Positions 2,723 through 50,905 of a stretch of DNA of 64,000 nt are shown here, piece by piece. Within the stretch, counting starts at the first letter, position 1. Each line of letters opens with the position of its first letter. Below the pieces are notes generated by a model. The model was not told where the DNA came from. It saw nothing but the letters and a program-made list of their open reading frames with translations, and did no database searches. Source of the stretch: an uncultured virus (IMG/VR IMGVR_UViG_3300025138_000019) (lineage: Duplodnaviria; Heunggongvirae; Uroviricota; Caudoviricetes); the IMG/VR virus record IMGVR_UViG_3300025138_000019; one strand, written 5' to 3'. A program made the translations under genes and the position numbers.

Positions 2723-3005
2723 CTACCGCCACAATATCTTCTCTTTTGAGTAGGTCAAATTTATCATGAATACCAATTCTCTTACTTACTTCGTAGAGAA
2801 CAATGTCCCCCACTTTATAATCCACTTTAGCTACCTTTCCATCGAGACCTGGAGTTCCGGGTCCCATGGTAATAACAGTGGCTTGAGCAAAAGATGTACT
2901 CAGTACCTGACTTGTCTTGAAAATAATACCAGAATCAGTTTTTTGTTCTTCGTTGTAATCGATTTTTTGTACTAGGATATAGTCACCCTGTGCAGAATAT
3001 TTCAT
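2706..3005 (-). CDS. groES: GroES/Cpn10-like co-chaperonin
   Basis: GDYILVQ, mobile loop KTDSGII, VITMGPG, KVGDIVLY and EDIVAVV match the Cpn10 pattern; 99 aa. Confidence 0.85.
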   Translation of the reverse strand: MKYSAQGDYILVQKIDYNEEQKTDSGIIFKTSQVLSTSFAQATVITMGPGTPGLDGKVAKVDYKVGDIVLYEVSKRIGIHDKFDLLKREDIVAVVDESE

Positions 3006-10806: not shown

Positions 10807-10818
10807 AAATTAAACCGA

Positions 10819-17605: not shown

Positions 17606-17619
17606 TTTTTAAACTTCCT

Positions 17620-31063: not shown

Positions 31064-31615
31064 CTATTCTTCTTCTAAAAGTTCTATATCTTCTGGTGTT
31101 GTAACCTTAGTACGAAGCAATTCTTTATAATCCATATTTTCGATATAATATCTTCTTGTTATGGGAGATACTGCTTCCTCTGGATCACTTGGTTTGTAAT
31201 TTGTGAATCCTGGCATACTAAGAGGACAATTTAATTTAGGGTAGTCTAACTTACTATATTCTTCATTTTCAGCTAGTAGCCAAGTTCTGGAACTGTCTCC
31301 ACAACCACACCCACCACAGAAATACTTACCTTCGGTTTTACTGTCCTGTAGGTGTTCACAAGGAGGAAGTTCTCCACCTACGTGTTGATTACCAAAGCAA
31401 CCTAGAACTCTAAGCTGCTTAGTGGGTTGAGTGGTTTTTTTATTGGTCAGTCCCCTTGAAGCCACGGAAGTTGCGAAACTCTGGACTAATCCTAAATTTT
31501 TTCGGATCGTTGTCTTGGTTCCGTCTGGACTGTCCACTGCTTCTACTCTGAACTTGTTCTCTACTTTTTCGTTGTTTTTTTTTGAACAACCACAATCTTT
31601 TTTATCACTCATCAA
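31064..31615 (-). CDS. Cys-rich hypothetical protein (CGC, CGGCGCGD, CP motifs)
   Basis: 183 aa with a putative metal-binding Cys cluster; last gene of the fibre cluster. Confidence 0.65.
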   Translation of the reverse strand: MMSDKKDCGCSKKNNEKVENKFRVEAVDSPDGTKTTIRKNLGLVQSFATSVASRGLTNKKTTQPTKQLRVLGCFGNQHVGGELPPCEHLQDSKTEGKYFCGGCGCGDSSRTWLLAENEEYSKLDYPKLNCPLSMPGFTNYKPSDPEEAVSPITRRYYIENMDYKELLRTKVTTPEDIELLEEE

Positions 31616-31621
31616 TGACTC

Positions 31622-32422
31622 CTATGGTAAATAAATTCTTCTGATAGGTCTTATTTTATTAAACTCGTAATGATCACATAACTTAACGTAATACGAACCT
31701 GCGGCACTTCTATTAAATTGTACACCATAATTATATGAACTTCCATTCATTTCTCTAAAATTATTTATGTGTGCCAAAGAAGAGGAAATATAGTTACCCT
31801 TCATCGATTTAAATCTTATATCACTTGCCTTAGATCTACCATATTCTCTTATTAGATTCCTTTGTATTGTGCTCTCTATATCAAGATCATATTTCTTATC
31901 AGCGATAAAAAGAAGCTCATAAAAAGATGGGATGTACCAATCTCTATGCCCATTTTTTTTATAATCTTTAAACTTTTTAAATATTCTATACTTAGGAACA
32001 GAAACTGACATTCCATCACCATAAGTATTTTTATGCCCATCAGTAACAGATGTATTATAGCTTATGAAGTTTTCTGATTTATTTCTGTAGTTTAATTTAG
32101 AAACAAGACCATATTCATCTTTACCTGGCATAGTAGGATCAGGAAGAAAGAAGTCTTCGGTACATACAATCAACAACCACTTTCTTGTTTGACGTTCATT
32201 TATTTTTGGAATTTCAGTTCCATATGAAGACATAAAATTATCTGGTGATGTGTAATCAAAAACACCAGCGACAACTCCCCCACCATATTTTTTACCAGTG
32301 GCTTTATTGATGTGAATTTTTTCATTGTTTACTGTAATATAATCAGAGTTGAGTTTTTTGGGTACTCTTTTTTCACCTAAGATTACTTTTTTTACTTCTA
32401 AGTCAGATGATTTGCTAGCCAT
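31622..32422 (-). CDS. Stand-alone DUF1566/Lcl-like (C-lectin fold) domain protein
   Basis: G..YGGGVVAG, DWYIPS..EL and IRPIRR motifs shared with 40734..43643 and 43643..46579. Confidence 0.65.
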   Translation of the reverse strand: MASKSSDLEVKKVILGEKRVPKKLNSDYITVNNEKIHINKATGKKYGGGVVAGVFDYTSPDNFMSSYGTEIPKINERQTRKWLLIVCTEDFFLPDPTMPGKDEYGLVSKLNYRNKSENFISYNTSVTDGHKNTYGDGMSVSVPKYRIFKKFKDYKKNGHRDWYIPSFYELLFIADKKYDLDIESTIQRNLIREYGRSKASDIRFKSMKGNYISSSLAHINNFREMNGSSYNYGVQFNRSAAGSYYVKLCDHYEFNKIRPIRRIYLP

Positions 32423-33231
32423 TAGCCGTCCTCCCCTTGGTCATCTACACCACAGTAACTACAGTTGCATGGACCATTGCAGTTGTTTTGGAATGGATCT
32501 ATCCATTCCCCAGCCTGCAATAAGCATTCTTCTTGAGTTAAATATTCAGTACAACCACCCTCTACATCATCATCACAACAAGCACTGACTATTTCGTCAT
32601 AACCAAGCAAACTCCAAATATCACACTCCACAGAAGCTTGTCCAAAGATAGAATAATTGCAAACGCTTCCGTCTTTATAGAATATACTTCCATATGGAGG
32701 TCTTACTAATAAAGCACAATCCTCTGTGGTGCATACGTTAGAACATTGAAGTCCGATTACTTCTCCGTTTTCAGCAGTCCCGGTTTCATAGTGACAACAA
32801 GCTTTGGGGAATCGTACATCTTCAGTTCCAAAACCACACAAAGTAGATGAGTTATTAAAAGTCTCACATGGAAACGGATACCAATTTCCACCCTTTTCAT
32901 TGCAGCCGCACTGAGTGGTTGCAGTCAAACCTAGTTGGTATTTTTGTGAATATTCTGAGTATGTGTCATTTACTATAGAACCCAACAAATTATCTTTCTC
33001 ATCTTCACTTAAATGACTACATGCACAACAACATCCTGTCCTACCAATTTGAGGACAAGTGACTTCACTTAAATCATCTGCCCCACGGAACAGTCCTTTT
33101 TGAACTGCACATTCAACATAGGAAGCCATTATCTTACTTCCATCAGGAAGACAGCATCCTCCAGTCAAACCATCATACTCTCCGTGTGCTATTACTGTTG
33201 GTATTCTAGATCTAAAGGTTGTAGTTGCCAT
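32422..33231 (-). CDS. Cys-rich GxCC-repeat protein
   Basis: GGCCLPDG, GCCCAC, KACC and SACC..C...T..EC...G.W repeats. Confidence 0.7.
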   Translation of the reverse strand: MATTTFRSRIPTVIAHGEYDGLTGGCCLPDGSKIMASYVECAVQKGLFRGADDLSEVTCPQIGRTGCCCACSHLSEDEKDNLLGSIVNDTYSEYSQKYQLGLTATTQCGCNEKGGNWYPFPCETFNNSSTLCGFGTEDVRFPKACCHYETGTAENGEVIGLQCSNVCTTEDCALLVRPPYGSIFYKDGSVCNYSIFGQASVECDIWSLLGYDEIVSACCDDDVEGGCTEYLTQEECLLQAGEWIDPFQNNCNGPCNCSYCGVDDQGEDG

Positions 33232-33237
33232 TTATTG

Positions 33238-36200
33238 TCAACACCTTTCGTATTCTAAACATGGATCGAAGCCGAGTGTAGTATCATAACCACACGCCAC
33301 ATCAGTACATATACTTGTTCCTCCGACAGGAATCTTCACTCTATATGAGGTTGAATAATATTCCCAAGGATCGATGATATCTGGTAACTGTGTGTAATCA
33401 AATCCAGTTCCGTATGGATCTTCGGTAGAACTCAATAACCCCTCCCCGGCTGGACCGGGTGAACACCATGAACACAGTCCTTGACTTCTCTTAGGATCAC
33501 TTGGGATTGCGGGTGTCGCCGGGGGCCCATTGGATTCTAATTTACATGGTTTCCAGAAACACTGTGGCCCACCCGGTGAATTCCCCGGAGTCACTGCGTC
33601 TCTATCAATTTCATTACAAACTTTACCACTCATGCAGTATCCTCTTGGATCTCCACCTAAAATATAGGTACATCCATTACCACATCTCAGTCCATCACAG
33701 AACCCATCTCCGGGAGCATCGGGATCGCTCCCCGGATTGTTGGTTAGATTATCTACCTCATCCCTTCCATCTGAGTAACCACAAACGCAGTTTTTATAAC
33801 ATATATCTTGGTTTGTTGGATCGTGATCACCTTCTTGGTTCCACTCACCTTCATCAGATCTATGAAGACAAAGATTGTCCTTATATCCTTCTGCGTCACA
33901 GTCACTCGTATTCATAACTGGACACATCATACATTCTTGAAGTTCTTCCAGAATATCAAGAGGATTTCTTAGTGGTTCGTTGTCGTCACAACCACCAGCA
34001 GCAGAATCTTCGTTGGCACATCTAGTGCTTTGTCCTGAGGCATTAAAGTGTCCTGTACAAATTGCTTCCTTACATTCAGGAGAAAGGCTCTTGTATGGTG
34101 GAGTTTCCGGGAACATTATATCAAGAACTTCCTCAACCACCTGTTTTCTCTGGTCGAAGGTGATCGCTGAGAGGCATAGACAACCGTAACAACCTACTCC
34201 GCCAATCTTTGGACCCAACTCACTACAACCTCCGTCATTCCCAACACCGAGAAGAGCTGCTTCCAAAAGACTCTTTAAGAGTGCTTTGGCTCGTTGTTGT
34301 GCCTTATAAATTGGTTCCGCTATGTGACCACATGCTTCAGACTTTTCGTTATTGGGAACGAATGGTTGATTGAGAACTGCGTCCTGTAAAATGTTTTCTG
34401 GATCGCACTGACATGTTCCGTCGATACATTTCAGATTACCCGGACATGGTGTGCTTTCATCACACGAATCTCCGATTCCATTCGATGGATCCAATGTCGG
34501 ATCGACAGGATTACCATTAGCGTCGAGCGGATTGCCATTACACCGACTTCCCCCGAACTGTCTACTACATGCGCTTTCGCCTGTTTGAGGATCTACGGGT
34601 TCCTTTGGATTCTGCGCTTCGCCACAACATTCTTCGGTTGCTACAGGACCTCCTCCAACATCACCATCACAAGGTTGTTGACAGTCTGGGTTGGGATTCT
34701 TTTTCATTGTAGTTCTGGTTCTGCCATCATCGGTCGGACCACCACCACAATATACGTTATCAGGTTTAACTTCACCTGAAGGATCCGGTGGTTTCCCTAA
34801 AGACATATCTATAACATCGTCTGATAGAAAACGACATGATCTACAAGTGTAGCAAAGATCTAAATCTTCAACTTTACCGTCAAAAGCTTCTTTGAATTCT
34901 GGATCCGATCCAGCAGGGTTGTTTCCTGGTCTTGTGTCACACTGACTCCTACAAGCACATACCATTTTATGTATTAAACCATCAGCACAATCGCCACCAT
35001 CGTTGCAATTTGCTCCTTCTTGAGCATTTACATCACAATCAGTATGACACAAACCTTGGTTTGCATCTGGACAGAGACAATTAGTTTCACAAGGCTCACC
35101 ATTCGCACAAAACGCAGCACACAGTTCTCTAGCTTTATCGGTGGTGATTCTTAGACATGCATCATTCTCACAATTAGCAGCATCAGGGCCTGATATGCAA
35201 TTTCCATTACAACATACTTGTCCGTCTGGACATCCTTCTGGACAGCTCTTCTCAGGATCGCCGCCAATTTCCCAGCCCTGATTTCTCAGTTCTTTCATAC
35301 ATGCACAGTTAGGGGCGCACCACTCTTCTTGCTCGATCTCAGGAGCGCATCCACCTGATCCACTAGGTTCTCCACGATCTTTGCACTTCTTGACTGCATC
35401 GAGTGCATCAAGTGCTGCATCTACTGCATCCCTTATCTTACCGAGTGGCGCAAACTCGCATGGAGGCGGACCACCGTTCTCGGCTTCGAATGCGTCTCTC
35501 GCGTCCGAACAGCCTTCAGGAAGGCCTTGGGGGATGAAGCTACATGCCGCAGCTATGACTTCATACCTTGCGTTCATTCCATCTGCAATTGATCGTGCTA
35601 GACAATCTCTATTGAAGTCAGGACCATCACACGCCCCGATTCCAGCAAGATCTGCTGTGCAATCGCCACCAGACTCATCTTTGTATTTGGGCATCGGACC
35701 ATTTTCGGTAGGCTGACCGGGGTCACCTGTTCCCGGATCACATTGAAGCGGGAGTTGACTTTGGTTGCACATACCATCTCTTGCAAGTCCTTTGTTATCA
35801 CTAAACGTGCAAAGCCACTTAGATCTAGTCTTCGATCTACATCTCTTGCATAATTCACACACACCCAAGTTGTCCCACATTTGTCTACTTAAATCATCAC
35901 CACACATGATTTGTGTTGTGCAGACTGGTGAACATTGCAACGGATCGCCGTCTTCTTCTTCTGGACATTCATCTAACCCGCTAGGACCTGGACCAGGTCC
36001 ACCACCGTTGTCGTCGTCTTCATCTGATTCACATACACATCTTGGCGCACCACTACAACTGGTGTCGGGTGGGCATGGATTACCTTCACAGCAGTTACCA
36101 CCAGGTCCACCACCACCACCAGGCGGGTCAATCAAGTCACATAAAAGTTCGGCAGTTGATCCACAAGAAAGAGAGAATGGATCGTAATCAGAACCTTCGA

Positions 36201-39200
36201 TTAGAACTGGAGGTGGTGCCTGACCCTCTTCTGGTGTGCAAGCTTCTTCTCCATATTCTCCTTGTACAACATAGTCACCATTTTCATTTTTCAAGCAAGG
36301 TAAAGTTCCACCAATTTCTGAACACAACCCAGCTTCAGCTTCTTCTACAGTTATCTTTTTACATTCAGGTTCCGGACATTCAGGACATCCGTCACTACAC
36401 ATACCTTCCATAGTACAATCAGTTTCTACACCTTGGAATTCAGGAGTACCATATGTGTCATCGTAATTGTTACAAAATTCTTCTGTGGATTCAATGCAGT
36501 CTCTGTATGGATCTGAAAAGTCTCCGTTTTCGTCTATGGGACCTGGTCGCCATATACAACAAGAACCAATAAAGTCTGGTGGATCTTGACATTTGCCCTC
36601 GACACATATTTGTGGTTGTTCGCATGGAGGAACACATTTATCTTCCCCTTCACCTTCTGGATCTATGCACTTCCCGTTGTAACACCATAATGGTGGTACA
36701 CATGGAGGATCACATGGAGTGCAGTCTAGGAAACCAGCAGGATCGAAGCACTCTCCGTTTACACAAAGACATGGTGCGGTGCATGCTGGATCGCATCCTT
36801 GTGGTTCACACGGAGAACACTCTCCACCGATACAACAAAGATTTTGTCCGGGGAACGATAACGCACAATCGATATCGCTTGTACAATCATCACTGTCATC
36901 ATCGCTACAATTACAGACATATTCATTATTCTCAAGAACACATGTGCAAATCTGACCAGGATTACAATCATCTCCGTTGACATCACAATTTCCAACTGAA
37001 CATTCTGCCATCTGGAACGCTAGATTTACGCATTGCTGTGTCCAACCTACTTCACAACACTCAGGTATTTTTTCACAGACGGCTGTACAACATCCCGGTA
37101 ACTCACAATATGGTGTGTCATTTGCTTCATAACAACTTCCCGCACCTTCAGTGCCACATCCAAGAGGAATACAATTATTGATTTCATCACAATAAAGGGC
37201 TTCATCGTGGAACACTGTTGTGTATTCTGGTTGTTCGTTTATATTATCACAAACTTCCCTGAATGTCCGCTGGCAACTTATGAGCTTTCCATTCTCGTAG
37301 GTACAACAAGGACGCAGGGATGTACATTGTCTTAACCCAGATGCACCGGCACGATCACAACCACAATCTGGATTATCATTTTCTACTGCACACCACTCAT
37401 CAGGGGGTTGTTCATCTGTACAATTACCAAAGCAATCGCCGGGACATTGATCTTCTGGAATACAAGGAACTCCGGGAATGCACGAAGCGTTTACAGCAAA
37501 ATCACAAGCATTATCGTTCGTGCTAGGTCCTCCGTTTGCAACTGGAGTGTATATACCACCAAGATCGTCACATGATCCCTCGTCATCTACGTTTATACAG
37601 TTATCCCAACCGAGACAACAGTATCCATCACTACATGGGTAAACATCTTCGTCTGTAATAGTACACAGTTTTCCGATTCTTCCAGAACAGAACTCGACTT
37701 CCTCTGAGCATGGGTTGACAACAATCGAACCAGCCTGGTTCGTTTCAATTTGTGCAAATACTTCTCGACTTATAATTCTATCTCGAACTGCGGGTGGGTA
37801 ACAACTACAATTTTCCACGACAGGAGTAAACACAGAACCAAATTCATTCTGAGCGCCCTCAGGAGTGCCAAGTTGATCACATAAGAATTTTGGCACTCCT
37901 CTGGTTCCTGTACTATAGAAACATTCTGTTCGAGAAGTTGGTTCGTTCACAAAGCCGCTCTGAATAAGACTACAAATACCACAGTTATCATCTGGGTTTT
38001 CCCAACCAAGATTACATTGTAGCGCGTCTCCGCAGGGATTTCCTGTTCTATTACAATCACTGTCGATTCGTCCACATTCTCCGTCTGTGCAGTCAGGAGC
38101 GTCTGCACAACTACAGTTTCCGGTATCGCACGTCAATGAGCTGGCGCAAGGTGGAGAACCACCTCCGCAGTCGGCGGAACAACATTCCTTTGTCCATACC
38201 GGCACGCAGCTACCAACACCACCTCTACAACAGCTAAACTGAGGACCTTCGAGGATTCCTCCGGGTATTGTTCCCCTTACTTCACCACCAAGGCACACCT
38301 CGCAGTGATTCGCATCGCATACTGGTTGGCAATTGCCATTTATACAGCACGCAACGTAATATGATCCTTCATCTCCATCTGGGTTACATGGATTTGCTTT
38401 GGGTGGCGGTGGACAATCGGTGCCAAGCGGATCGTCATTACAACTTCGACAGAAGCTAGGAGCTTCGCCTCCACAACAGCAAGGACCATCCGAATTGCCT
38501 CCAGTCTCCCAGTCTGGATCTTCTAAATCAGCGTTTCGAAGGGCCTCTGGATCTCTCTCGAAGAATTCCTTACTATACAAGGAAGGACGACACACACCAT
38601 TAACACATATATGAGCACTTCCGCAATCGGAATCAGCCGAACATGACGGGATGGTATTGGCATCAAACTGTCCTGCTCTACCCCGAGATGATCTCTGGAT
38701 TCCTCTTTCTTCTGCTAGACAACAGCCGGGAAGACCTGGATTTTCTTCACATAACTCACTGTCTCTGTAACCGCAGAGCATACAGCAAGGAACCATTGGA
38801 TCTGGATCTGGTGGATCCGTATCACAATCAACCTCTGAACACTGTTCATCTGGGAAAAATTCTAATCCACCAAGACGAGTGCAATCTTCGGCTGTTACGT
38901 TTACACATGCAGTTTCATCTGGGTTTGCTGGATCTGGTAGATAACAACAAGCTCCTATATCTGGAGGAGGCACAGTAGGACAATCATCTTCTCCGGTGCA
39001 AATTGTTTGTGGTGTGAATATTCCACCACCATCTACACAATTAGTTTGTGTTATAAAATCTTCACATTTGTATTCTGAGTCGGTATCACCAGAATTGCAA
39101 TTTTGTAAACAAGTACAACACTTACCAACTGGTTCGTCGTCATCGACAATACAACAATCAATATCTTGACATCTAACGTCTTGTCCCATAAATACGCCAC

Positions 39201-40722
39201 CGACTCGCTTACAATCTTGGACTGTAACATCACTCAGGCAAGTATCTTCAGTGCAACATGCACCAATGTATGGAATATAATCACAACAATCGATATATCC
39301 ACATCCTGCCGTTCCACCGCCATATGCGGGATCGTTTGGATTTATGGAAGTACCTTCTAAAATTTCTTCGCACTGTATTCTACTGTAATTACCAATACAG
39401 ATACCATCTTTACAACAGGCCCATTGTGGTTGACATGGATCATTACAAAATCTTATTGAGTTATCACCCTCTGGACTTGAATCATATGAATTACAGGTTA
39501 CACCTTCCCAGTAAGTTGCATTATAGTAATCACATTCTGCTTTACTCATCTCAGATAAACAAATACCCTCAGAACAACAAACTCCGGCGGTGATGCCACA
39601 GTTATTTTGACATGAGTTGTTTATATCAAAAACACCATACAAATTATCACAGAAAGATTGTGTTACATAATCTTTACATTTGAATGTTTCATTGATTGGA
39701 TCTTGATAACAACAGGATCCGTATGCTCCACCAGATTGACATGAATCTACATTGTAACCTCTTGCAGCAAAAACAACTCTCCAAGAGAAACCATTGTCGT
39801 GACTATAGAAGTTACAGATATCAGTACCACAACTGAAGAACTTGTTTAATGATTCAAAGTAAACATTGTCTGGGAACTTCCAAAATCCATCACCTTTAAC
39901 AACCGCAGTAAACGATCGTAGTTCTGGTTTTGCGTTGAAGTCTCCGGTGAATCCCTTGATACCAATTGGGGTATTGATTACAACCAATGCACCTCTATCG
40001 ACATCAATCAGAATTCCGCTGTCTGATGTTTCTCCACCAAGATCGTCATCCCCAGTTACTCCTGTAATTTCATCTTGTAGAATTGGACCGACTGTATAAG
40101 TAAAGTCCTTTGTATCAGTAACAAGTTTTACGTTAGCGGCTGGAGCAGCATCAACTTCGTCTGGAAATTGTGCCTTACTTAAAATGGAGTTGAAGAATAA
40201 AATTTCATCGTCTATTGTGACACCATGAAGTTCAGAAACTCTATCTGGCTCGCTAAGATAAAGTAAGTGACTACCTGTCATTCCGACATCTACACTCGCA
40301 CCAGTAAACTCTTCTGGATTGTAGCCACCAGTTATGAAAACAGAATTGAATAGACCAACAGAAACATAAAGTGAACCATCACCACCTATTGATGTGAATT
40401 CAAATGTCTTTCCACCGTCAACACCTTTAAACAAATCATATTGACCTGCATCGACAGTCGAACCTGCTCCAAGGTGATAAGTTCCAGTATTTCCAGTTAA
40501 ACCTATAACGGTAAATACATTTTCATCACTGATATGGAAATCTAAGTGATCATCATATCTTTCTATTCGAGTGATATATGCACCAGTTCCACCTGATGGA
40601 CCAGACCAAGTAGTGCCAGGAGTTGCTAACTCTGGCCCAGTGGTGCCGGTTATTCCTCTTGGACCCTGCGGACCTCTAGGTCCCTTTGGTTTTATGTGGC
40701 TACTTCCGATGAATCTTGACAT
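33238..40722 (-). CDS. Giant (2494 aa) Cys-rich putative fibre/adhesin with a collagen-like N-terminus
   Basis: GPRGPQGPRGITGTTGP, about ten xxCC repeats, small EGF-like Cys modules and Pro/Gly linkers; lies in the tail-fibre slot. Confidence 0.75.
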   Translation of the reverse strand: MSRFIGSSHIKPKGPRGPQGPRGITGTTGPELATPGTTWSGPSGGTGAYITRIERYDDHLDFHISDENVFTVIGLTGNTGTYHLGAGSTVDAGQYDLFKGVDGGKTFEFTSIGGDGSLYVSVGLFNSVFITGGYNPEEFTGASVDVGMTGSHLLYLSEPDRVSELHGVTIDDEILFFNSILSKAQFPDEVDAAPAANVKLVTDTKDFTYTVGPILQDEITGVTGDDDLGGETSDSGILIDVDRGALVVINTPIGIKGFTGDFNAKPELRSFTAVVKGDGFWKFPDNVYFESLNKFFSCGTDICNFYSHDNGFSWRVVFAARGYNVDSCQSGGAYGSCCYQDPINETFKCKDYVTQSFCDNLYGVFDINNSCQNNCGITAGVCCSEGICLSEMSKAECDYYNATYWEGVTCNSYDSSPEGDNSIRFCNDPCQPQWACCKDGICIGNYSRIQCEEILEGTSINPNDPAYGGGTAGCGYIDCCDYIPYIGACCTEDTCLSDVTVQDCKRVGGVFMGQDVRCQDIDCCIVDDDEPVGKCCTCLQNCNSGDTDSEYKCEDFITQTNCVDGGGIFTPQTICTGEDDCPTVPPPDIGACCYLPDPANPDETACVNVTAEDCTRLGGLEFFPDEQCSEVDCDTDPPDPDPMVPCCMLCGYRDSELCEENPGLPGCCLAEERGIQRSSRGRAGQFDANTIPSCSADSDCGSAHICVNGVCRPSLYSKEFFERDPEALRNADLEDPDWETGGNSDGPCCCGGEAPSFCRSCNDDPLGTDCPPPPKANPCNPDGDEGSYYVACCINGNCQPVCDANHCEVCLGGEVRGTIPGGILEGPQFSCCRGGVGSCVPVWTKECCSADCGGGSPPCASSLTCDTGNCSCADAPDCTDGECGRIDSDCNRTGNPCGDALQCNLGWENPDDNCGICSLIQSGFVNEPTSRTECFYSTGTRGVPKFLCDQLGTPEGAQNEFGSVFTPVVENCSCYPPAVRDRIISREVFAQIETNQAGSIVVNPCSEEVEFCSGRIGKLCTITDEDVYPCSDGYCCLGWDNCINVDDEGSCDDLGGIYTPVANGGPSTNDNACDFAVNASCIPGVPCIPEDQCPGDCFGNCTDEQPPDEWCAVENDNPDCGCDRAGASGLRQCTSLRPCCTYENGKLISCQRTFREVCDNINEQPEYTTVFHDEALYCDEINNCIPLGCGTEGAGSCYEANDTPYCELPGCCTAVCEKIPECCEVGWTQQCVNLAFQMAECSVGNCDVNGDDCNPGQICTCVLENNEYVCNCSDDDSDDCTSDIDCALSFPGQNLCCIGGECSPCEPQGCDPACTAPCLCVNGECFDPAGFLDCTPCDPPCVPPLWCYNGKCIDPEGEGEDKCVPPCEQPQICVEGKCQDPPDFIGSCCIWRPGPIDENGDFSDPYRDCIESTEEFCNNYDDTYGTPEFQGVETDCTMEGMCSDGCPECPEPECKKITVEEAEAGLCSEIGGTLPCLKNENGDYVVQGEYGEEACTPEEGQAPPPVLIEGSDYDPFSLSCGSTAELLCDLIDPPGGGGGPGGNCCEGNPCPPDTSCSGAPRCVCESDEDDDNGGGPGPGPSGLDECPEEEDGDPLQCSPVCTTQIMCGDDLSRQMWDNLGVCELCKRCRSKTRSKWLCTFSDNKGLARDGMCNQSQLPLQCDPGTGDPGQPTENGPMPKYKDESGGDCTADLAGIGACDGPDFNRDCLARSIADGMNARYEVIAAACSFIPQGLPEGCSDARDAFEAENGGPPPCEFAPLGKIRDAVDAALDALDAVKKCKDRGEPSGSGGCAPEIEQEEWCAPNCACMKELRNQGWEIGGDPEKSCPEGCPDGQVCCNGNCISGPDAANCENDACLRITTDKARELCAAFCANGEPCETNCLCPDANQGLCHTDCDVNAQEGANCNDGGDCADGLIHKMVCACRSQCDTRPGNNPAGSDPEFKEAFDGKVEDLDLCYTCRSCRFLSDDVIDMSLGKPPDPSGEVKPDNVYCGGGPTDDGRTRTTMKKNPNPDCQQPCDGDVGGGPVATEECCGEAQNPKEPVDPQTGESACSRQFGGSRCNGNPLDANGNPVDPTLDPSNGIGDSCDESTPCPGNLKCIDGTCQCDPENILQDAVLNQPFVPNNEKSEACGHIAEPIYKAQQRAKALLKSLLEAALLGVGNDGGCSELGPKIGGVGCYGCLCLSAITFDQRKQVVEEVLDIMFPETPPYKSLSPECKEAICTGHFNASGQSTRCANEDSAAGGCDDNEPLRNPLDILEELQECMMCPVMNTSDCDAEGYKDNLCLHRSDEGEWNQEGDHDPTNQDICYKNCVCGYSDGRDEVDNLTNNPGSDPDAPGDGFCDGLRCGNGCTYILGGDPRGYCMSGKVCNEIDRDAVTPGNSPGGPQCFWKPCKLESNGPPATPAIPSDPKRSQGLCSWCSPGPAGEGLLSSTEDPYGTGFDYTQLPDIIDPWEYYSTSYRVKIPVGGTSICTDVACGYDTTLGFDPCLEYERC

Positions 40723-40733
40723 ATAGAATCTCT

Positions 40734-43643
40734 TTATGAATTACAGTCACATGGACTACATGAATTACAACCACCCAAGACTGGATATGCAGGGGAACTG
40801 TTGGCACAACTCACGCTTATTGTATATATGGGAATTCTTCTCACGGGTCGCAGTTTATTTTTATCGTTTACATCTTTCCTGTATGAACTGATCATATTAC
40901 CATCGGGTACACTTTGTGCATACATTCGATGTCCCTGAGAAGCTTCAAACTGCCTACCAGTTATTTCTGATGTTCTTAAATTAGGATCAGAAGTTTCGTA
41001 GTTACCAGTGCTTGGCAAAAATTTCGATCCGGAAGTAGATGTCCAATATCGTCCAGTCATAGGAATGTATCCTGTAGTCGAACTCTGCATCTGAGAATTT
41101 TTCCCAGTCATATAGTTCATCTCAACTGCACTAGGAATATACCAATCGGTAAAACCAGTATTGTTGCTTCTGTTAAAAGAAGAAATCTCGTAAGTTGCGT
41201 CACCATTTGTGTTTTGTATATCCCACATTATGGCATAGTAAAGATCAAAATTAGTTTCAACTGCATCTCTGAGTGCGGCTTCATTATCAAAGTCAAACAA
41301 TTCGATGAGAGGATACCAATTTGAAGATGTTTCTATACCATGCTTCCATCTTGTATAATCAAAATCATCCCCTAAACTAGGACCAAGATTCCAAATATGT
41401 GTGTCTTTACTGGTATCATCATAAAGTCTGGTATTCAATAATCCATCTATTACAGATGTAGCGTATGAAGTCTCACCTTGTTCAAATCCTTTATTCATAC
41501 CCCATGTCATGTCGTAGTTGTTGCTATTTCCTACGGATAGATCTTCTTTGGCAGTAACTAAAGCCCATCGACGATGAATCGTAGCTGTGCCATAATACCT
41601 AGAGGCAAAGTAAGAGTACATTATTGAGCCACCCTCATCTACAACATTGGCCTCTTCCATTTTATCGTTCAATGAAGCAGAACCGTAATCACATAATCTA
41701 GGTAAAGGATTTCCAAATTGATCTCTTCCATGGTTTATGAAAGTTTTACTTATGTGTCCTTGTTCTTGTGCGTTCCATGTATTCTCGTAAAAATCTTTAA
41801 AGTAGATTTTAAGTGGAGACGTGTGATCACAGGGACAAGTCTGTTGGTTTTCTGTTCTTGGTCCAACAGAGGAGACATAACTTCTTGGTGTGCCAGGAAA
41901 CAACGAACCATTTGCTTGACAATATTTCTGGATTAAGTTAGAACCATCTTCATTTGCACCAGTGTGTGTTTCCATGCAGTATATGGGGGGTCCTTTTGCC
42001 AAGTCTGGATTATTTACAGTAGTACAAGTTGATGGTTCTCCAATGTAACCTACAAAAATACCTCCACCAAATTCATCACCAACTCGAATACCATCCACAC
42101 ATGGTTGAGTGTTCAGTTGACAAGAATCTTCTCCTTGTTCGGAGATGGGAGGTCTGCAACACTCCACATAATTTGGTTCATCAGGAAAATCGCATTGTGT
42201 TCCGATTCCATGAAAAACTCCAGACTCTGTGTCACCATCATTATCAATATCTTTATTCACAGCACAACCAAAAGCAGAGTCTTGGGTGCAGATTTCACCT
42301 CTACAACACGCACCGAAATATCCTTCGGTACAACAATTTACCCAATTGGGAGCGGTCTCATCACATGATCTACCCTCAAAGAATACACCATCAATTAGAT
42401 CACAAAATTCAGCATCGACTGATAGACAAACCCCGTCTTTACAACAGGCTCCATCACCCGGACATTTGTTTGGACAACCACCAGATTCTTGTATTTCTGC
42501 ACAGGTTTTATCTGCAAATAATCCACCGATTTCATCACACTTTTCTTTTGTGCTTCTTACACATCCATCATTTACACAACAAGAACCTTCAACAAAGCAG
42601 TTTGGACCTTCTTGTCTGTCTAAACATGTTACTGTATCAAACACACCTTCGATTGCATCACAAAAAGCTTTTGTAATATAATCATCACAAGTTGTAGTAA
42701 AGTCTCCAGATTCTCTGGAACAATAACAACAAGATCCTATTGTATTCTCAAACAACGCCCCCAACTTTTGGGATGGTGTTTTTATCTTCTTTGTTCCAAC
42801 TGTTCTATCTCTGAATTTAAACTGTGCCTGTATTTGATCTTTAGTTAAACCAGACTGATTTAGTATATTTGACATTGGTAGATAAACACCAAAGCATACA
42901 CCTGCCACTGTTTCTAGTGGATCTCCACCGCCAAAGAAATTGTGTGTTCCATGAATTTTTTCACTTCCACTAGCCCCACTAACACCCGGTGTTAAATCCT
43001 GTACATTCCAGTTCACCAACGAGGGCTGACTGCCGGGAACCTGTCCGGCATCAATTGAAGAAAAACTTTCTCTCACTATCTTAAAAGTAAACCCAACAGA
43101 TCCAGAACTTCCGGTGTTTGCAACAGGAGTGGGATCATAAGTTAAACCTCTTGCTCCCTTGCCACCAGTTCGTCCATCTCTAGTGAAGAAAACAATTTCT
43201 CCAGTGTTTCCAATTTTCCCAACATCATATGTTTTACCACTAAGAACTATTTCATCGGTTCCATTTGAACCATGAATTGGATGTGCGATTATATCACTAC
43301 CAGAAATTCTTAATCGTTTGAATGTTGCAGTGTTTCCATCTACTGATTTTAGTATGCTGTTATAAGTACCACCATAAACAGGAGCAGCGATAAAAATGCC
43401 TTCGGGTAAAATATCACCTGTAGCTCCGATTATATTATCAATGGTAAACTCTTTACCATCAGTAAGACTGATCTTAATTCCGGAAGCTGACACTCCAACT
43501 ATGTTAGATATCCCAGCACCAGTATTACCCCTACTTCCTAGAGTATAGCCACCAGTAGTTCCAGTTGCTCCCTTTGCTCCGGTAGGTCCAGTAGGTCCAA
43601 CAGGACCCGGTGCCACTATGATATGTCTACTACTTCCAGGCAT
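40734..43643 (-). CDS. Putative tail fibre: collagen-like N-terminus, four G[AS]CC repeats, DUF1566-like C-terminus
   Basis: GPVGPTGPTGAKGATG; G[AS]CC x4; VGDEFGGG, DWYIPSAVEM, YWTST, LRPVRR. Confidence 0.75.
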   Translation of the reverse strand: MPGSSRHIIVAPGPVGPTGPTGAKGATGTTGGYTLGSRGNTGAGISNIVGVSASGIKISLTDGKEFTIDNIIGATGDILPEGIFIAAPVYGGTYNSILKSVDGNTATFKRLRISGSDIIAHPIHGSNGTDEIVLSGKTYDVGKIGNTGEIVFFTRDGRTGGKGARGLTYDPTPVANTGSSGSVGFTFKIVRESFSSIDAGQVPGSQPSLVNWNVQDLTPGVSGASGSEKIHGTHNFFGGGDPLETVAGVCFGVYLPMSNILNQSGLTKDQIQAQFKFRDRTVGTKKIKTPSQKLGALFENTIGSCCYCSRESGDFTTTCDDYITKAFCDAIEGVFDTVTCLDRQEGPNCFVEGSCCVNDGCVRSTKEKCDEIGGLFADKTCAEIQESGGCPNKCPGDGACCKDGVCLSVDAEFCDLIDGVFFEGRSCDETAPNWVNCCTEGYFGACCRGEICTQDSAFGCAVNKDIDNDGDTESGVFHGIGTQCDFPDEPNYVECCRPPISEQGEDSCQLNTQPCVDGIRVGDEFGGGIFVGYIGEPSTCTTVNNPDLAKGPPIYCMETHTGANEDGSNLIQKYCQANGSLFPGTPRSYVSSVGPRTENQQTCPCDHTSPLKIYFKDFYENTWNAQEQGHISKTFINHGRDQFGNPLPRLCDYGSASLNDKMEEANVVDEGGSIMYSYFASRYYGTATIHRRWALVTAKEDLSVGNSNNYDMTWGMNKGFEQGETSYATSVIDGLLNTRLYDDTSKDTHIWNLGPSLGDDFDYTRWKHGIETSSNWYPLIELFDFDNEAALRDAVETNFDLYYAIMWDIQNTNGDATYEISSFNRSNNTGFTDWYIPSAVEMNYMTGKNSQMQSSTTGYIPMTGRYWTSTSGSKFLPSTGNYETSDPNLRTSEITGRQFEASQGHRMYAQSVPDGNMISSYRKDVNDKNKLRPVRRIPIYTISVSCANSSPAYPVLGGCNSCSPCDCNS

Positions 43644-46579
43644 TAACTATCCCTTATAACCTTTGGAACTCTCCAAAGTGAATCATCGCCGGATAGATAT
43701 TTTGAATCACATCTAATCAAACGAACTGGTCTTACTTTGTATTTATTTTCTAAACGATTTGCTTTATATGTAAAGAATTGAGTAACATCTCCATTAGGAT
43801 TGAAGTGCATTGCCCAAGCTTCGGATCCAGATATAATACTTCCATCACCCAGAACTACACCCTCACCACTCACACCGGATCCTAAAGTTGATCCAGCATA
43901 TTCATTAAAGGCTCCAGTTGATGTCCAGTGCCAACCATCAACTGGAACACCTTCATGTTCTAGTAGTTTTACATTTAAGTTAAAGTTGTAGTAGTCATCA
44001 TCACTGGTACAGTTTGCAGCAATAAACGCCATCTCATCATGACTGGGTAAATACCAGTTCGATACTGCTGCTGGGTTTTCTCCTGTTTGTCCGTCAGAAG
44101 TTAACCCGTCAGATAATAATCTAGCAGCTCTAAAAGATGTCATCTCACCTGCGGTTGGACCAAACAAACTCTGATCAAATCTAACATCGAACTTGCCATC
44201 ACTATAGTTATCAGCGGAAACTAGTCGTATTGTATTTAACAGTCCCCAATTTCTTCTCCAATATCCATTATTGGCTTGCTTTGGATGTGTTGCAGCCCAC
44301 AACTGAGGATCTGTCCTAGTTCCTCTTGCTTTTTCACACGAAACAAAAGTATTGCTGTTTAGGTTATTGAGTGACTTCGAATACTTGGAATCATACCAAT
44401 AACCCTCATTACCAATATAACTTTCGTAGTTTGGTAAGTCATTATATTTTCCGTTTATTTCATCGTACAGTGGACCCCAGGCACACCCAGAGTTACCCCA
44501 AACAAACTCTTCTTGCGTAAAAGGACTACCGTAGTCTGACAGAGTTGAGCCAGAAATTGCAATCGGTTCTTTGGAAACTATGAGAAGATATGAATCTGGC
44601 AGTGGTTCTCCTGCAACAGGCAAATCTGTTCTAAAGAAAGGGTTGCAATTACTAGCAGTTCCACCACTTATACCATATCCATTATAGTCATATGAACTGT
44701 AATAGTATTCAGAGTTTCTCATATTTCCATCAATCAAACTCATGGTGTTTCCCGGACTAAATGCATGTCTCGCACCAAGAAGTTTAGATCCATATGGGTT
44801 GTATAATCCAACAACCACACCTCCGGCAAATTCATCGCCTGGTTTTATTTGCTGTGAACCAATTATACCAGAGCAACTACTTGTTGCTTTATTTGTGCAG
44901 TTTACTTGAGAACATGTGGTTCCTTTTCCTGCGTAGTATCCACCTGTTGCGATACAAGAATCTCCTGAGATTCCGCTATCACAATCTCCTGATGATCGGC
45001 AGCAAGCCCCGGTTCCCCCATAACAGCGATTCTCTCCGTTTTCGTCAATACATTGAACCCCGAGTCCGTGGAAAAATCCACCCGACTCTACACAATCATA
45101 GTGTGTTTTTAGTTCACAATCACCAACACCATTACAACATGCTCCGAGATCTCCAAAAGCAGAATTGCAACTAATATCCACACAAGATATATCATTACCA
45201 CCAAAAATGGTTTCTATATTTTCTTCCAAACCTAATGATAAACATTCATATGCAGTCATTTGCTGGCATTGTATATTCCCAAAGTCGGTGTTTTTTATAC
45301 AACATGGACCTTTTACATTACAGATGTCACAAGTAGATCCTGTTCCACCAAAAGTCCCACCGGCAATACAAGTATCACAAGTAGAGCCAACTCCCTGAAA
45401 ATAACCATTCGTACAACCATCTATTGTTCTAAGATCACAAGTTCCTGATGCACTACAACATGCCCCGACACCAGTTACATCTTCAAATGAACCTTCAAAA
45501 TTTCTAAACAGCGGATCATCTTGATTTGGGTTACATGAAAATACCAGTGAGTCTGATACAGATAGACCATCTAGAGTAACACCACCAATAGAAACTGGAC
45601 CTTGAGATACTAGGTTTCCATACCAAAGACCATCAACCCAAAAGAAATTGTAAAGTTGTTCCACACCAATGTTATTATCATCTAAAGAAAAACATGGGAC
45701 TCTATTGTACGGAAATACAACGTTTGTTCCAAATCTCTGATATGAATCATTGAAAGGATTATGGTGCCTTTTCATGAATATACTAATTGCATGACCTTTA
45801 TCAGAATCTTCTGGAGGTAATATGTTAAAAACTACACGCCTTCCAGTAGGTACTGTGGTTGCTTCTACTATAAAGAAATCTGCTTCTCTTGGATCTATAT
45901 CAACTCGCCAAGTAAAAAAGTCTTCTAATAACGTGTAGTTATTGGAACTTGTTCCTATGATCTTAAATCTTTCTGCATACCTTGATATCGCAGATTCTAG
46001 AGTTTCTTCTATAGGATCGTATTTTATTCTATCGCCAGTTGCAGCCGGACCAAGCTTAAAAGGACCGCTGACTCCCTCTGGTATAAATGATCTTATAATA
46101 TCATTTTTAGTTGCTGCTTCATCTAGTTCTATGCTACCAACGAAACCAACATTATAGTCTATTACAATTTCATTTCCATCAATAGTCTCGAAGACATTTA
46201 AACCAAATCCAGTAGCAGTTATAGGTCTAACTGAAATTCCTTGGAGTTGATCTCCACAAACACCATCATACAAACCAATACCAGTCGATCCTTCGGCGGT
46301 TCCTGTTATGAACTGGAAGGACGGACCTGTATAACCTACAAGCGCCCCGTCTGCGTACAACACAACACCAGAGCTAAATCCCTGTTCTAGTGTAGATCCT
46401 GCTAAGGTAAATCCTAGTAGTTCGTTTCCAGTGCCACCACTGAGTCCATATGAAAGCGGTCCAGTATGTCCTTTGGGACCACTAGGACCTGACAGTCCAA
46501 TTGGACCTGTAGATCCACCGGACTGACCGGCGTGGATGAAGCTTACTGCACTGCTTCCATAAGTACCTTGTCTTGCCAC
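43643..46579 (-). CDS. Putative tail fibre: collagen-like N-terminus, four G[AP]CC repeats, DUF1566-like C-terminus
   Basis: GPIGLSGPSGPKGHTGP; G[AP]CC x4; PGDEFAGG, NWYLPSHDEM, HWTST, VRPVR. Confidence 0.75.
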   Translation of the reverse strand: MARQGTYGSSAVSFIHAGQSGGSTGPIGLSGPSGPKGHTGPLSYGLSGGTGNELLGFTLAGSTLEQGFSSGVVLYADGALVGYTGPSFQFITGTAEGSTGIGLYDGVCGDQLQGISVRPITATGFGLNVFETIDGNEIVIDYNVGFVGSIELDEAATKNDIIRSFIPEGVSGPFKLGPAATGDRIKYDPIEETLESAISRYAERFKIIGTSSNNYTLLEDFFTWRVDIDPREADFFIVEATTVPTGRRVVFNILPPEDSDKGHAISIFMKRHHNPFNDSYQRFGTNVVFPYNRVPCFSLDDNNIGVEQLYNFFWVDGLWYGNLVSQGPVSIGGVTLDGLSVSDSLVFSCNPNQDDPLFRNFEGSFEDVTGVGACCSASGTCDLRTIDGCTNGYFQGVGSTCDTCIAGGTFGGTGSTCDICNVKGPCCIKNTDFGNIQCQQMTAYECLSLGLEENIETIFGGNDISCVDISCNSAFGDLGACCNGVGDCELKTHYDCVESGGFFHGLGVQCIDENGENRCYGGTGACCRSSGDCDSGISGDSCIATGGYYAGKGTTCSQVNCTNKATSSCSGIIGSQQIKPGDEFAGGVVVGLYNPYGSKLLGARHAFSPGNTMSLIDGNMRNSEYYYSSYDYNGYGISGGTASNCNPFFRTDLPVAGEPLPDSYLLIVSKEPIAISGSTLSDYGSPFTQEEFVWGNSGCAWGPLYDEINGKYNDLPNYESYIGNEGYWYDSKYSKSLNNLNSNTFVSCEKARGTRTDPQLWAATHPKQANNGYWRRNWGLLNTIRLVSADNYSDGKFDVRFDQSLFGPTAGEMTSFRAARLLSDGLTSDGQTGENPAAVSNWYLPSHDEMAFIAANCTSDDDYYNFNLNVKLLEHEGVPVDGWHWTSTGAFNEYAGSTLGSGVSGEGVVLGDGSIISGSEAWAMHFNPNGDVTQFFTYKANRLENKYKVRPVRLIRCDSKYLSGDDSLWRVPKVIRDS

Positions 46580-46595: not shown

Positions 46596-47780
46596 TTAAG
46601 TTAGATTTAAAGTGCTCTCTACAGTAGCTTTATGTGTATCTAATGCAGTAAGTTTGTCATACAAATCGACAGGAGATCCTGTCTTACTCTGATTATATAT
46701 GGTCGCAGTGTCAGTGACGGTTAGGTTTTCTATAGTAACACTAGATGGAATTGAAACTGCGCTGGTAGAACTTACTTTGATATAGGGATATAACTCAATT
46801 TGTCTTTGAGTGTTCTGACCAACGATGACTGTCTCTGTTTTTCTTGAAAATATGGGTGTTGTAAACGCATAATGTGTATTGGATGATATTGTCCAAGTTC
46901 CTGATGCAATAGTAATTTTACCGGAGGAATCAGCCAATCCAGTAATTTTTCCTGACCCATCACTAGATTTTCTTACATCAAAATAATTATCTACGGTGTT
47001 TGCTCCAACAACTTGACCACTCCAAGTTATTCTTCCATTTGTTTGCTGGATTGCAGAACTTCCGATTAAACCCGGATCTGGCGGTGTATTGACATAAATT
47101 CTTTCGTCCAAAGATGAAAGAGATGCCGATGAATTCAATGCACCATATAAATCTTTGTAATCTAAAATTGTAAAGGTCAGAGGTCTGTCACATCTTTTCC
47201 AATTGTAAGAATCAGATTCTGTTATTGAATAAATCAACGCGCCAGGAGGCTCTGTTCCAACTTCACTTGAAATTTCCTCTCCACCGATAATGTAACCAAC
47301 ATAGTTTAAAACTTGTGCATTAAAGCCTGGAGTTTTAATTTTTTGTATAACTGGTTTTACAACATATCCCGGATTGTTTGGTGCAAGAGCCTGCAATACA
47401 CCGCTAGTATTTCCCGACAGGAAGTAAACATCTTCTCCACCCGCACCGCCAGTCACACCGTCTTCATCTTTTTCTTGTCTGAGTGTGATTGGACCTGTAT
47501 CTGGATAATTTATCATTCCATAAAGAACAACATTAAGATTAGATCCAGTAATACTCTCTACTACACCAAAAACTTCGGCATTGGCAGGATCATTTGCGAG
47601 AGATGTCACATACCTGTTCAATCCCGGATCGTAACGAACTACATGGCCAGCACTTAATCCATTTTCTACAGAATATTCATCAGCATCCCTAGAGATGGTG
47701 GTGAGTAATCGAGCACCAACTGTATTAAGGTTAGCGACACTTCTAATTGAATCAATGTTTGATGAACTATAACTGGGCAT
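46596..47780 (-). CDS. Virion structural protein (fibre/baseplate-associated)
   Basis: G.VVR...A...AEV.GVV...YFLS...G.L...P...V.KPV module shared with 47794..50097. Confidence 0.6.
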   Translation of the reverse strand: MPSYSSSNIDSIRSVANLNTVGARLLTTISRDADEYSVENGLSAGHVVRYDPGLNRYVTSLANDPANAEVFGVVESITGSNLNVVLYGMINYPDTGPITLRQEKDEDGVTGGAGGEDVYFLSGNTSGVLQALAPNNPGYVVKPVIQKIKTPGFNAQVLNYVGYIIGGEEISSEVGTEPPGALIYSITESDSYNWKRCDRPLTFTILDYKDLYGALNSSASLSSLDERIYVNTPPDPGLIGSSAIQQTNGRITWSGQVVGANTVDNYFDVRKSSDGSGKITGLADSSGKITIASGTWTISSNTHYAFTTPIFSRKTETVIVGQNTQRQIELYPYIKVSSTSAVSIPSSVTIENLTVTDTATIYNQSKTGSPVDLYDKLTALDTHKATVESTLNLT

Positions 47781-47793
47781 TTTTTATTCCTTC

Positions 47794-50097: not shown

Positions 50098-50122
50098 CTG
50101 TGTGTTCCCTTACTAAAGCCTA

Positions 50123-50905
50123 TCATGCGGTATCAACCAAGTAATTATTAATAAATCTTATCGTCTGATCAGCCCGAGGGCTGGCAATTGCAGAGACTCT
50201 GGTTCTATCGGGGTTGACGGGAGTTGCCCCACCATTACTCGAACCAAAAATGACGGGAGTCAGAACTAGTTTCACTCTAACAGCGCCAAGTGGTGGTGTT
50301 CCTTCTAAACTGGAGTTATCTGCAAGATCGGGATCAAACTCAAACCCCTCTACATTTTCATTTGCAAGAAAATATTTTTTACTAATCTGGAAACCAACAG
50401 CACTGCCATTGGAAACTCCCTCAAACCTGTAAGTACCAAAGTCTCCATCACCTTCAAAATATACCCACTGCTTGAGACCACCACCAACATCGTCAGGTAA
50501 AGTTACTAAGAACCAACCCGGATCAACTTCAATCAGGCTCCCGCCGGAAGACCAACTTCCACGGACACCCACCGTGGGAGAAACCGGACATGCGCCAGGA
50601 GCGGTAACATCACCCCAACCCGGTCCAGATACATCTGCGTCTGGAGCTACTAGACCACCCCAGTTACTCATCATTGTTGTTGTTAAGGTTTGATTAAGAA
50701 AAAATCTTTCCTGAACTTCATTCAATTCAGAAGCTTGCAAAGGATATCCGGGAACGAACCCAGTGAATGTGTAATTTTTAGGAAGACCTGTTGCCTGCAA
50801 TTCTTGGTTAACTGTTCTGGCATAATAGGGAAAACTGCTAAGAGGGAATGAGAATTGTCCCCCAGCCTGTGCTTTACCGAATGGAATTAAAGATCGTTCT
50901 GCCAT
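50123..50905 (-). CDS. Structural protein with a DUF4815-like N-terminal motif
   Basis: PYY...F.PGYPLQASELNEVQ matches the gene that follows gp8 in marine T4-like phages. Confidence 0.6.
   Translation of the reverse strand: MAERSLIPFGKAQAGGQFSFPLSSFPYYARTVNQELQATGLPKNYTFTGFVPGYPLQASELNEVQERFFLNQTLTTTMMSNWGGLVAPDADVSGPGWGDVTAPGACPVSPTVGVRGSWSSGGSLIEVDPGWFLVTLPDDVGGGLKQWVYFEGDGDFGTYRFEGVSNGSAVGFQISKKYFLANENVEGFEFDPDLADNSSLEGTPPLGAVRVKLVLTPVIFGSSNGGATPVNPDRTRVSAIASPRADQTIRFINNYLVDTA

Follow-up and report, generated by a model that had tools for sequence, protein, structure and literature searches.

Organization of the locus

The stretch of DNA analysed here, referred to as the window, spans 64,000 nucleotides of an uncultured tailed virus (Caudoviricetes; IMG/VR record IMGVR_UViG_3300025138_000019) and holds, according to profile matches from Pfam and PHROGs, the core structural and replication genes of a T4-like phage. 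Between positions 31064 and 46579 it carries six adjoining open reading frames (ORFs) on the minus strand, encoding proteins of 978, 969, 2494, 269, 266 and 183 residues that we call C978, C969, C2494, C269, LC266 and S183 (Table 1). These genes are flanked by baseplate genes (gp25, gp6 and gp7- and gp8-like genes) on one side and by gp13-gp14-gp15 on the other. A first-pass annotation, made from the sequence alone, had read them as six contiguous, mostly translationally coupled members of one family of cysteine-repeat fibre proteins. Their contiguity and location were borne out, but the coupling was overstated: the junctions measure -1, 11, 6, -1 and 6 nt, so that only two of the five overlap. 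The family is also smaller than proposed. The cysteine module described below is present in only four of the six genes; LC266 is a detached tip and S183 stands outside the system. We refer to the genes other than S183 as the cassette.

A six-cysteine module in four proteins

C978, C969, C2494 and C269 carry tandem copies of a cysteine module, termed GACC. The presence of such a tandem module had been recognised correctly, but with a five-cysteine formula that is wrong: each unit has six cysteines, and the literal regular expression of the proposed spacing matched 0 times. The four proteins hold 356 cysteines in total (3.6, 4.3, 10.1 and 10.0% of C978, C969, C2494 and C269), as against 0-1.4% cysteine in the capsid, portal, sheath, terminase, gp6 and gp13-gp15 of the same phage. 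In each large protein the cysteines are packed into a block of about 200-330 residues (12-14% cysteine) preceded by an almost cysteine-free stalk. C2494 continues after its GACC block for 1830 further residues at 11% cysteine, and of its 252 cysteines, 204 fall between residues 661 and 2494, for the most part beyond any GACC module. As had been noticed, the three large proteins start with a GSS motif (residues 8, 3 and 6 of C978, C969 and C2494) followed by 6-7 uninterrupted Gly-X-Y triplets each, runs that fall below the Pfam Collagen cut-off. No N-terminal hydrophobic stretch of signal-peptide strength was detected in the cassette proteins, in agreement with the earlier remark on signal peptides, and no membrane helices were found.

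A profile built from 621 units of cellular-type proteins only was then run on the window proteins. It recognised 13 modules in C978, C969, C2494 and C269 (6.7-27.9 bits; nine at 10 bits or more); the remaining 41 proteins of the window and 200 shuffled sequences gave no match. The repeat thus occurs in four window proteins and, as shown below, widely in cellular proteins, and it belongs to no catalogued family: Pfam, PHROGs and NCBIfam hold no model of it, and C969 has no match in 50,697 GenBank phage records. A literature search, whose coverage left out supplements and most subscription journals, returned no description of the GACC module, of these fibres or of a phage of Phycisphaerae. These data support the view, already held in the first-pass annotation, that the module-bearing cassette is an uncatalogued modular fibre or adhesin architecture. 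The fibre plan itself (anchor, collagen, stalk and variable lectin tip) is already known; the arms made of cysteine mini-domains are the new part.

Conserved N-termini and exchangeable ends

The first 580 residues of C978 are paralogous to C969 (hhalign probability 100). Relatives of the cassette proteins keep the N-terminus and the first GACC block, while their ends are swapped between Lcl_C, RCC1-like, PKD or FG-GAP domains and further cysteine repeats. The stalk of C2494 (residues 1-330) ends in a domain seen in phage proteins; as a lead, the clusters closest to it are viral (0.92, with PF26209 present in 21% of their members). A homotrimer prediction for this stalk scored 0.02 with an uncertain fold and was used neither way. 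BLAST found no counterpart of C2494 beyond residue 700 among the phage proteins compared. Within this part, a patch of about 160 nt differs from one other strain (sequencing run X4) by 34 substitutions among those listed and by two compensating 1-nt indels, a density that fits the exchange of short segments.

The structure model of C969 has a mean predicted local distance difference test (pLDDT) score of 53, with values mostly of 70-90 in the tip. Residues 509-940 were modelled as a C-type-lectin-like domain of the Lcl type. The top structural match is BACOVA_04982 (4eps, Z 9.9), and the C-terminal domain (CTD) of Lcl (8q4e) superposes with a Z of 9.6 and a root-mean-square deviation (rmsd) of 3.0 over 127 of 131 residues. 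The next matches are FGE-type proteins and variable proteins of diversity-generating retroelements (DGR); Z values were 4.9, 6.4 and 5.0 for Bordetella phage Mtd (1yu0), TvpA (2y3c) and TaqVP (5vf4). Foldseek ranked the same Lcl chain first (E 0.07), with viral DUF1566 proteins at E 0.002-0.01. At the sequence level, the gathering cut-off of Lcl_C/DUF1566 (PF07603), 34.9 bits, is not reached: C969 scores 20.9 bits (E 5e-4), LC266 14.6 bits (E 0.04) and C978 has no match, the domain being weakly present in 13 of 31 members of the C978 family. The end of C978 matches the tip profile (E 5e-7), and C978 probably ends in the same C-type-lectin-like tip as C969, on weaker evidence. Thus, of the two DUF1566-like ends originally proposed, one has a modelled fold with a sequence score below the Pfam cut-off and the other has no Pfam match of its own, while LC266 is a further weak match.

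Legionella Lcl is a trimeric collagen and DUF1566 adhesin that binds glycosaminoglycans and whose CTD lacks disulfides (PMC11162425). C969 shares with it a collagen-like run and a C-terminal C-type-lectin-like domain of the same fold. However, Lcl is a secreted bacterial surface protein, whereas in the phage proteins the collagen run is limited to 6-7 triplets, GACC modules intervene, and the tip has large insertions and remains below the Pfam cut-off. Mtd and the other DGR variable proteins likewise share the broad tip fold and its place at the end of a probable fibre. In contrast to them, the cassette has no template/variable repeat pair: no repeat of at least 25 nt was found in 28000-52000, and the ORFs scanned, from partial genomes, included no reverse transcriptase. 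Variation appears to come from module exchange.

The cassette is an accessory element

Between gp8 and the cassette come three more genes of baseplate or fibre type, U260, F767 and F394 (260, 767 and 394 aa). F767 matches the tail fibre family phrog_4492 (PHROGs, E 3e-30) and has no meaningful match in the PDB. U260 aligns, at E 1.4e-4, with the N-terminal part of a DUF4815 protein of 1152 aa (PDB 9euf), probably the tripod protein of Staphylococcus phage 812. The tripod is described in PMC13433997. The first-pass annotation had the cassette replace gp9-gp12 and wac, whose roles in T4 are described in PMC3004832. The two sets are alike in their slot between gp8 and gp13 and in probably forming fibrous appendages. 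They differ in that none of the six proteins matches T4 gp9, gp10, gp11, gp12 or wac in sequence (among Pfam, PHROG and PDB members), in that other genes fill the slot, and in that the cassette is optional. Because U260, F767 and F394, themselves without a match to gp9-gp12 or wac, stand in the post-gp8 slot, the claim that the cassette replaces gp9-gp12 is not supported, and the existence of relatives lacking the cassette also speaks against it. The gp8-like wedge protein (window 50914-52758, minus strand) contains a cysteine-rich insertion with 10 cysteines and one GxCC, possibly a disulfide docking site for fibres.

Two scans of IMG/VR with cassette sequences yielded 49 and 37 loci, 85 together and partly redundant. 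Wherever the contigs reach, the order is gp8, U260, F767, F394, C978, C969, C2494, C269, S183 and gp13, with one or two copies of about 900-3100 aa at the C2494 position. The locus L083 is a clear exception and L078/L079 a variant. L083 encodes a 594 aa GACC-block protein (10001-10960) in another gene neighbourhood, which places the module in other viral contexts too.

A search of IMG/VR with S183, independent of the cassette, gave at least 332 stretches, of which the best 80 were analysed. S183 was called in 79 of these 80, with gp13 following it in 77 of the 79. Among the 54 S183 loci with at least 1.9 kb upstream, the cassette is absent in 8: in six loci (L376, L381, L413, L422, L427 and L434) S183 is directly adjoined by baseplate or F-type genes, and L401 and L402 have genes without CC motifs in the cassette slot. 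A count of loci with an upstream GxCC motif (47 of 54) was dropped, since gp8 itself has one GxCC. No GACC block was found in the 118 kb record behind L381 (65% complete) or in the 63 kb record behind L376, while a control record gave 4 matches. A quick gp13 tree (68 rows, midpoint root) scatters the loci lacking the cassette over three or four distinct branches; L376 is placed with the cassette-bearing L373, L375 and L378 (SH-aLRT 97). The cassette is therefore accessory: it is interchangeable with cysteine-free genes or absent. In L422 and L434, U260 directly precedes S183 and F767, F394 and the cassette are all missing; the fibres of these phages must be encoded elsewhere. In L401, a fusion of DUF6734 and DUF6171 (2564-3574, plus strand) takes the place of the last gene of the cassette.

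S183 is not part of the cassette, because it persists in cassette-free loci; for the same reason we rejected it as a dedicated folding or redox partner. The 35 sequences compared share 49-62% identity and six invariant cysteines, and the model of S183 has a confident core. Fold searches and Pfam gave no structural or family match, which does not show a new fold; comparison with DUF6171 gave an atlas score of 0.81, an hhalign probability of 7% and no Pfam match. A role as metal-binding helper of neck assembly is a guess.

The last cassette gene is split in the window. In 34 complete relatives the C269 homologue is a protein of 483-681 aa, which in 20 of the 34 also matches LC266 by BLAST, and LC266 matches the C-half profile of the family (E 7e-21). 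In the window the two halves are coupled by a TAATG overlap. The junction is spanned by contigs from 3 of the 4 runs examined, which come from three studies: the two short contigs are free of differences, and those listed for the long one lie elsewhere. Among the same 54 S183 loci the gene is split in 5 (one being a copy of this phage) and fused in 27. A frameshift artefact at 32422 was rejected, since independent contigs bridge the junction and the split recurs in relatives. C269/LC266 is a natural, recurring split into a cysteine arm and a lectin-like head.

Cellular counterparts of the modules and the carrier phage

The GACC repeat block retrieved 1005 representatives at E≤1e-3 (50% clustering). 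Among the 149 top matches listed, 58 are of collagen type, like the phage proteins, and 91 are not; a hydrophobic N-terminus was found in 57 of the 91 non-collagen proteins as compared with 2 of the 58 collagen-type ones. Non-collagen carriers hold dockerin, PKD, peptidase and FG-GAP domains (30 scanned), and of 10 carriers looked up, the two with an organism name both belong to Planctomycetota. In GTDB genomes, a GACC pattern biased to one spacing found at least 131 loci; the 80 listed comprise 46 from Planctomycetota, 17 from Eisenbacteria, 6 unnamed and 11 others, 6 of which have no open unit. The C969 profile gave one marginal, tip-only match there.

A second, eight-cysteine module occupies residues 1188-1239 in the variable part of C2494. 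Its pattern, with a similar bias in spacing, occurs at 137 or more loci of GTDB genomes, 133 with a full open unit. Of the 80 listed, 72 are from Planctomycetota, mostly Phycisphaerales of lakes and sea, 4 are unnamed and 4 are others. A profile of 207 cellular units scores the window copy at 49 bits (iE 3e-14) and none of 200 shuffles, and the closest cellular copy among the matches is 58% identical over 48 aa. Among the phage loci of the two cassette scans the module is found elsewhere only in L078/L079; the PDB holds no match. Secreted repeats of Planctomycetota (Phycisphaerae) and Ca. Eisenbacteria thus share the GACC unit with the phage, which also has the eight-cysteine unit in common with cellular proteins. 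In the cellular carriers, however, the N-termini are signal-like and the partners are dockerin, PKD, peptidase or FG-GAP domains, whereas the phage carriers lack export signals. Two independent modules of planctomycete type, one of them lineage-specific, suggest that the phage clade had repeated access to planctomycete genes.

The carrier has the gene content and order of a T4-like myophage (gp23, gp22, gp21, gp20-gp13, gp6, gp25, sheath, clamp and loader): the window includes gp23, scaffold (gp22), protease (gp21), portal (gp20), sheath, terminase, gp13-gp15, gp6, gp25, clamp, loader and UvsW. Its gp23 capsid protein is less than 60% identical to that of each of 2592 matching GenBank phage records, the best identities (55-59%) being to cyanophage capsids and to pelagiphage Mosig. 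Sequencing runs with the cassette region are marine, seawater or brine metagenomes (20 runs, 15 studies). No host signal came from other genes among 146 ORFs of three partial genomes, including the GMP reductase of a near-identical record, and a provirus-class record (G006) showed no clear host genes among the ORFs scanned.

Disulfides or metal ions

Stabilisation by disulfides or metal ions had been proposed without a choice between them. The homologues favour disulfides, because the cellular copies are mostly exported and the sole solved look-alike, a unit of the iRhom homology domain, is disulfide-bonded; this domain is stapled by 8 disulfides (PMC11248996). The modelled module at C969 residues 396-441 matches the iRhom unit with a Z of 3.9 and an rmsd of 1.6 over 40 aa (Z 3.6-3.9 and rmsd 1.6-1.7 for 8snl and 9xy4), and the GACC profile aligns all six cysteines with iRhom2 571-606 (E 0.04). 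The two appear alike in the spacing of their six cysteines and in their 40-residue fold. In contrast, iRhom is an animal membrane pseudoprotease with a single or paired unit, and the match is weak and does not establish homology. In the GACC units the six cysteines are kept at 99-100% and histidine is rare (0.2 per unit), values biased by the choice of matches. Cysteine co-loss was discarded as a guide to disulfide pairing, since the cysteines are nearly invariant by selection of the matches.

The premise that structural proteins of tailed phages are poor in cysteine has published exceptions. Phage Milano has an extensive virion disulfide network with 2.1% cysteine in its structural proteins (PMC10811340), and phage Jabs has about 1,700 disulfides, for which oxidation at or after lysis was proposed and the mechanism called open (bioRxiv 10.64898/2026.07.24.740622). 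Like them, the phage studied here is a tailed phage assembled in a reducing cytoplasm with, probably, many virion disulfides. Their disulfides, however, are mostly interface cross-links in core proteins, whereas the cassette concentrates cysteines (10-14%) in repeated mini-domains of accessory fibres and the core proteins of its own phage are cysteine-poor; 10% cysteine in autonomous mini-domains remains unusual. Given this precedent, the question of maturation is real but not unique to this phage. With no export signal, no oxidase seen among the 146 ORFs of the three partial genomes, and with Milano and Jabs as precedents, late oxidation would be the simplest route. A search for phage Erv oxidase (0 of 5 partial records) was uninformative, as no positive control matched.

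Proposed model and alternatives

We propose, with a probability of roughly 0.6, that the locus is an accessory cassette encoding modular, paralogous fibres for receptor binding (or neck or baseplate appendages) bearing host-type disulfide modules that are oxidised at or after lysis. The carriers would form a widespread clade of uncultured T4-like phages from aquatic habitats. Each large protein would be anchored to the virion, presumably as a trimer, by its conserved N-terminus with the short collagen-like run and the almost cysteine-free stalk. The GACC mini-domains, probably with three disulfides per unit, would form a jointed arm. At the exchangeable end, a C-type-lectin-like head, as modelled in C969, probably binds surface glycans, while C2494 would present a long mosaic of cysteine-rich mini-domains instead. 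These mini-domains, shared with secreted and surface proteins of Planctomycetota, were presumably drawn from that pool, and a phycisphaeral planctomycete host, for which we see about even odds, would be the simplest cause of the sharing. The most likely course is that the proteins, made without signal peptides, are assembled with their cysteines reduced and become oxidised when the cell lyses or later, as has been suggested for Jabs. This model is favoured because relatives conserve the gene order, N-termini and first GACC block but swap the ends, because the cassette is interchangeable or absent in some of them, and because disulfide-rich virions have precedent.

Several points weigh against it. 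Virion location, disulfides and host are all deduced from genes. In the C969 model the repeats have pLDDT values of about 55-70 and the N-terminal 300 residues mostly below 50, Foldseek gave no match at E≤0.001, and the resemblance to iRhom is weak (E 0.04, Z 3.9). Both GTDB pattern scans favour one spacing, and GACC units are not confined to Planctomycetota but turn up in Eisenbacteria and a few further groups. The GC3 of the eight-cysteine module (0.29) is like that of the rest of C2494; this codon amelioration means that the transfer was not a very recent event. Just two clade contigs were found in genome bins (L452 and L453), one in a bin of Terrimicrobiaceae (Verrucomicrobiota) and one in an unnamed bin, none in Planctomycetota, a placement that may reflect mis-binning. 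Lastly, no thiol oxidase or thioredoxin was found among the 146 ORFs, and hundreds of intradomain disulfides would be harder to form without a catalyst than the interface disulfides of Milano and Jabs.

The alternative of the same fibres in a phage of another host, with modules picked up long ago from a shared aquatic gene pool and now serving as structural spacers only, is in our view less likely than not. It would account for the bins, for a phage GC of about 35-40% and the resemblance of gp23 to cyanophage and pelagiphage capsids, and for a GACC block that is old and conserved across the clade. The independent eight-cysteine module, nearly restricted to Planctomycetota and found in a lineage-specific part of C2494, points instead to repeated access, and no photosynthesis genes were seen among the 146 ORFs of these partial genomes. 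A bolder reading appears somewhat unlikely: that the clade infects Phycisphaerae, repeatedly captures host disulfide mini-domains and shows them on optional fibres of several hundred cysteines, oxidised only at lysis, as host-surface mimics or homotypic binders and not as mere spacers.

Virion fibres whose cysteines bind Zn or Fe would fold in the reducing cytoplasm and need no later oxidation. T4 fibres contain metal sites, and the lack of signal peptides, the lack of an oxidase among the 146 ORFs and the acidic character of the proteins would suit such fibres. We nevertheless consider them improbable, given the hydrophobic N-termini and extracellular domains of most cellular copies, the disulfides of the only solved look-alike and the cysteine and histidine pattern given above. 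Quite improbable, in our view, are products outside the virion that are set free at lysis or displayed on infected cells as decoys, aggregation factors or superinfection shields mimicking host surface proteins. The cassette is dispensable and built of host-type surface modules, and the only structural-family match of the repeat proteins is a weak one to the tail family phrog_819 (E 4e-4). Yet it lies inside a tightly packed late tail and neck operon, in a slot that holds ordinary fibre-like genes in relatives; it encodes neither signal peptides nor membrane helices; and a collagen start, conserved anchor and variable tip are the usual plan of a fibre. Overall, the observation made in the first-pass annotation was confirmed in part: modular fibre architecture was upheld, while replacement of gp9-gp12 and a six-member family were not.

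Features of the window and other genes

Table 1. Features of the locus and their positions in the window
Feature	Position	Strand	Description
S183	31064..31615	-	Conserved small protein, six invariant Cys, gp13-linked; outside the cassette
LC266	31622..32422	-	Detached C-type-lectin-like half of the same gene as C269; TAATG overlap
C269	32422..33231	-	GACC-module half of the split gene; no collagen run
C2494	33238..40722	-	GSS and collagen run, conserved stalk (residues 1-330), conserved GACC block (residues 334-640), then about 1850 aa of acidic, lineage-specific Cys-rich mosaic
C2494 strain-variation patch, about residues 1712-1765	35430..35589	-	Seen against one other run (X4)
Eight-Cys module in the variable part of C2494	37006..37161	-	CCxxVCxxxPxCCxxxW type; also in Planctomycetota (mostly Phycisphaerales) proteins
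C969	40734..43643	-	GSS and collagen run, stalk, five GACC-type modules (residues 302-500), Lcl/DUF1566 C-type-lectin-like tip with insertions (residues 509-940)
C969 C-type-lectin-like tip domain	40824..42119	-	Model compared with 8q4e and 4eps
C969 conserved GACC block	42144..42740	-	Module at residues 396-441 superposes on iRhom homology-domain unit
C978	43643..46579	-	GSS and short collagen run, stalk (about residues 1-345), four GACC modules (residues 371-570), probable C-type-lectin-like C-terminal tip
U260, F767, F394	46596..50905	-	DUF4815-like N-terminus (U260), phrog_4492 tail fibre (F767); occupy the post-gp8 slot

Other genes of the window, all on the minus strand, were also recorded. 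A SET-domain gene (PF00856, E 8e-8; 10819-11532) sits between gp47- and gp46-like genes. At 6746-9087, a weak match to N6/N4 DNA methylases (E 1e-4) lies beside a weak match to pyridoxal-phosphate (PLP) enzymes (E 0.01), possibly a DNA modification pair. Two genes after gp23 (15833-18384; 590 and 254 aa) have no Pfam match and are possible head decoration or tail-terminator genes. A gene for a nucleotide-diphospho-sugar transferase follows regA (469-1146); relatives of the phage have large sugar-modification clusters and separate collagen fibre genes. The near-identical record (G002) carries a Destabilase (i-type lysozyme) gene (L233:16832-17260, minus strand; E 6e-15), possibly an unusual lysin, with GMP reductase and GDP-mannose dehydratase genes nearby.

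Implications

The analysis defines two uncatalogued families of cysteine-rich domains that are common to planctomycete surface proteins and to a common aquatic phage clade, for which S183, next to gp13 in the stretches analysed, is a very conserved marker. Natural relatives with and without the cassette offer a ready comparison. Individual modules are small and lend themselves to expression, which makes the formation of disulfides in tailed phages, a question left open in the Jabs preprint, directly testable. If the host link is true, the cassette would be a marker for T4-like phages of Phycisphaerae, a group for which the literature search showed no described phage.

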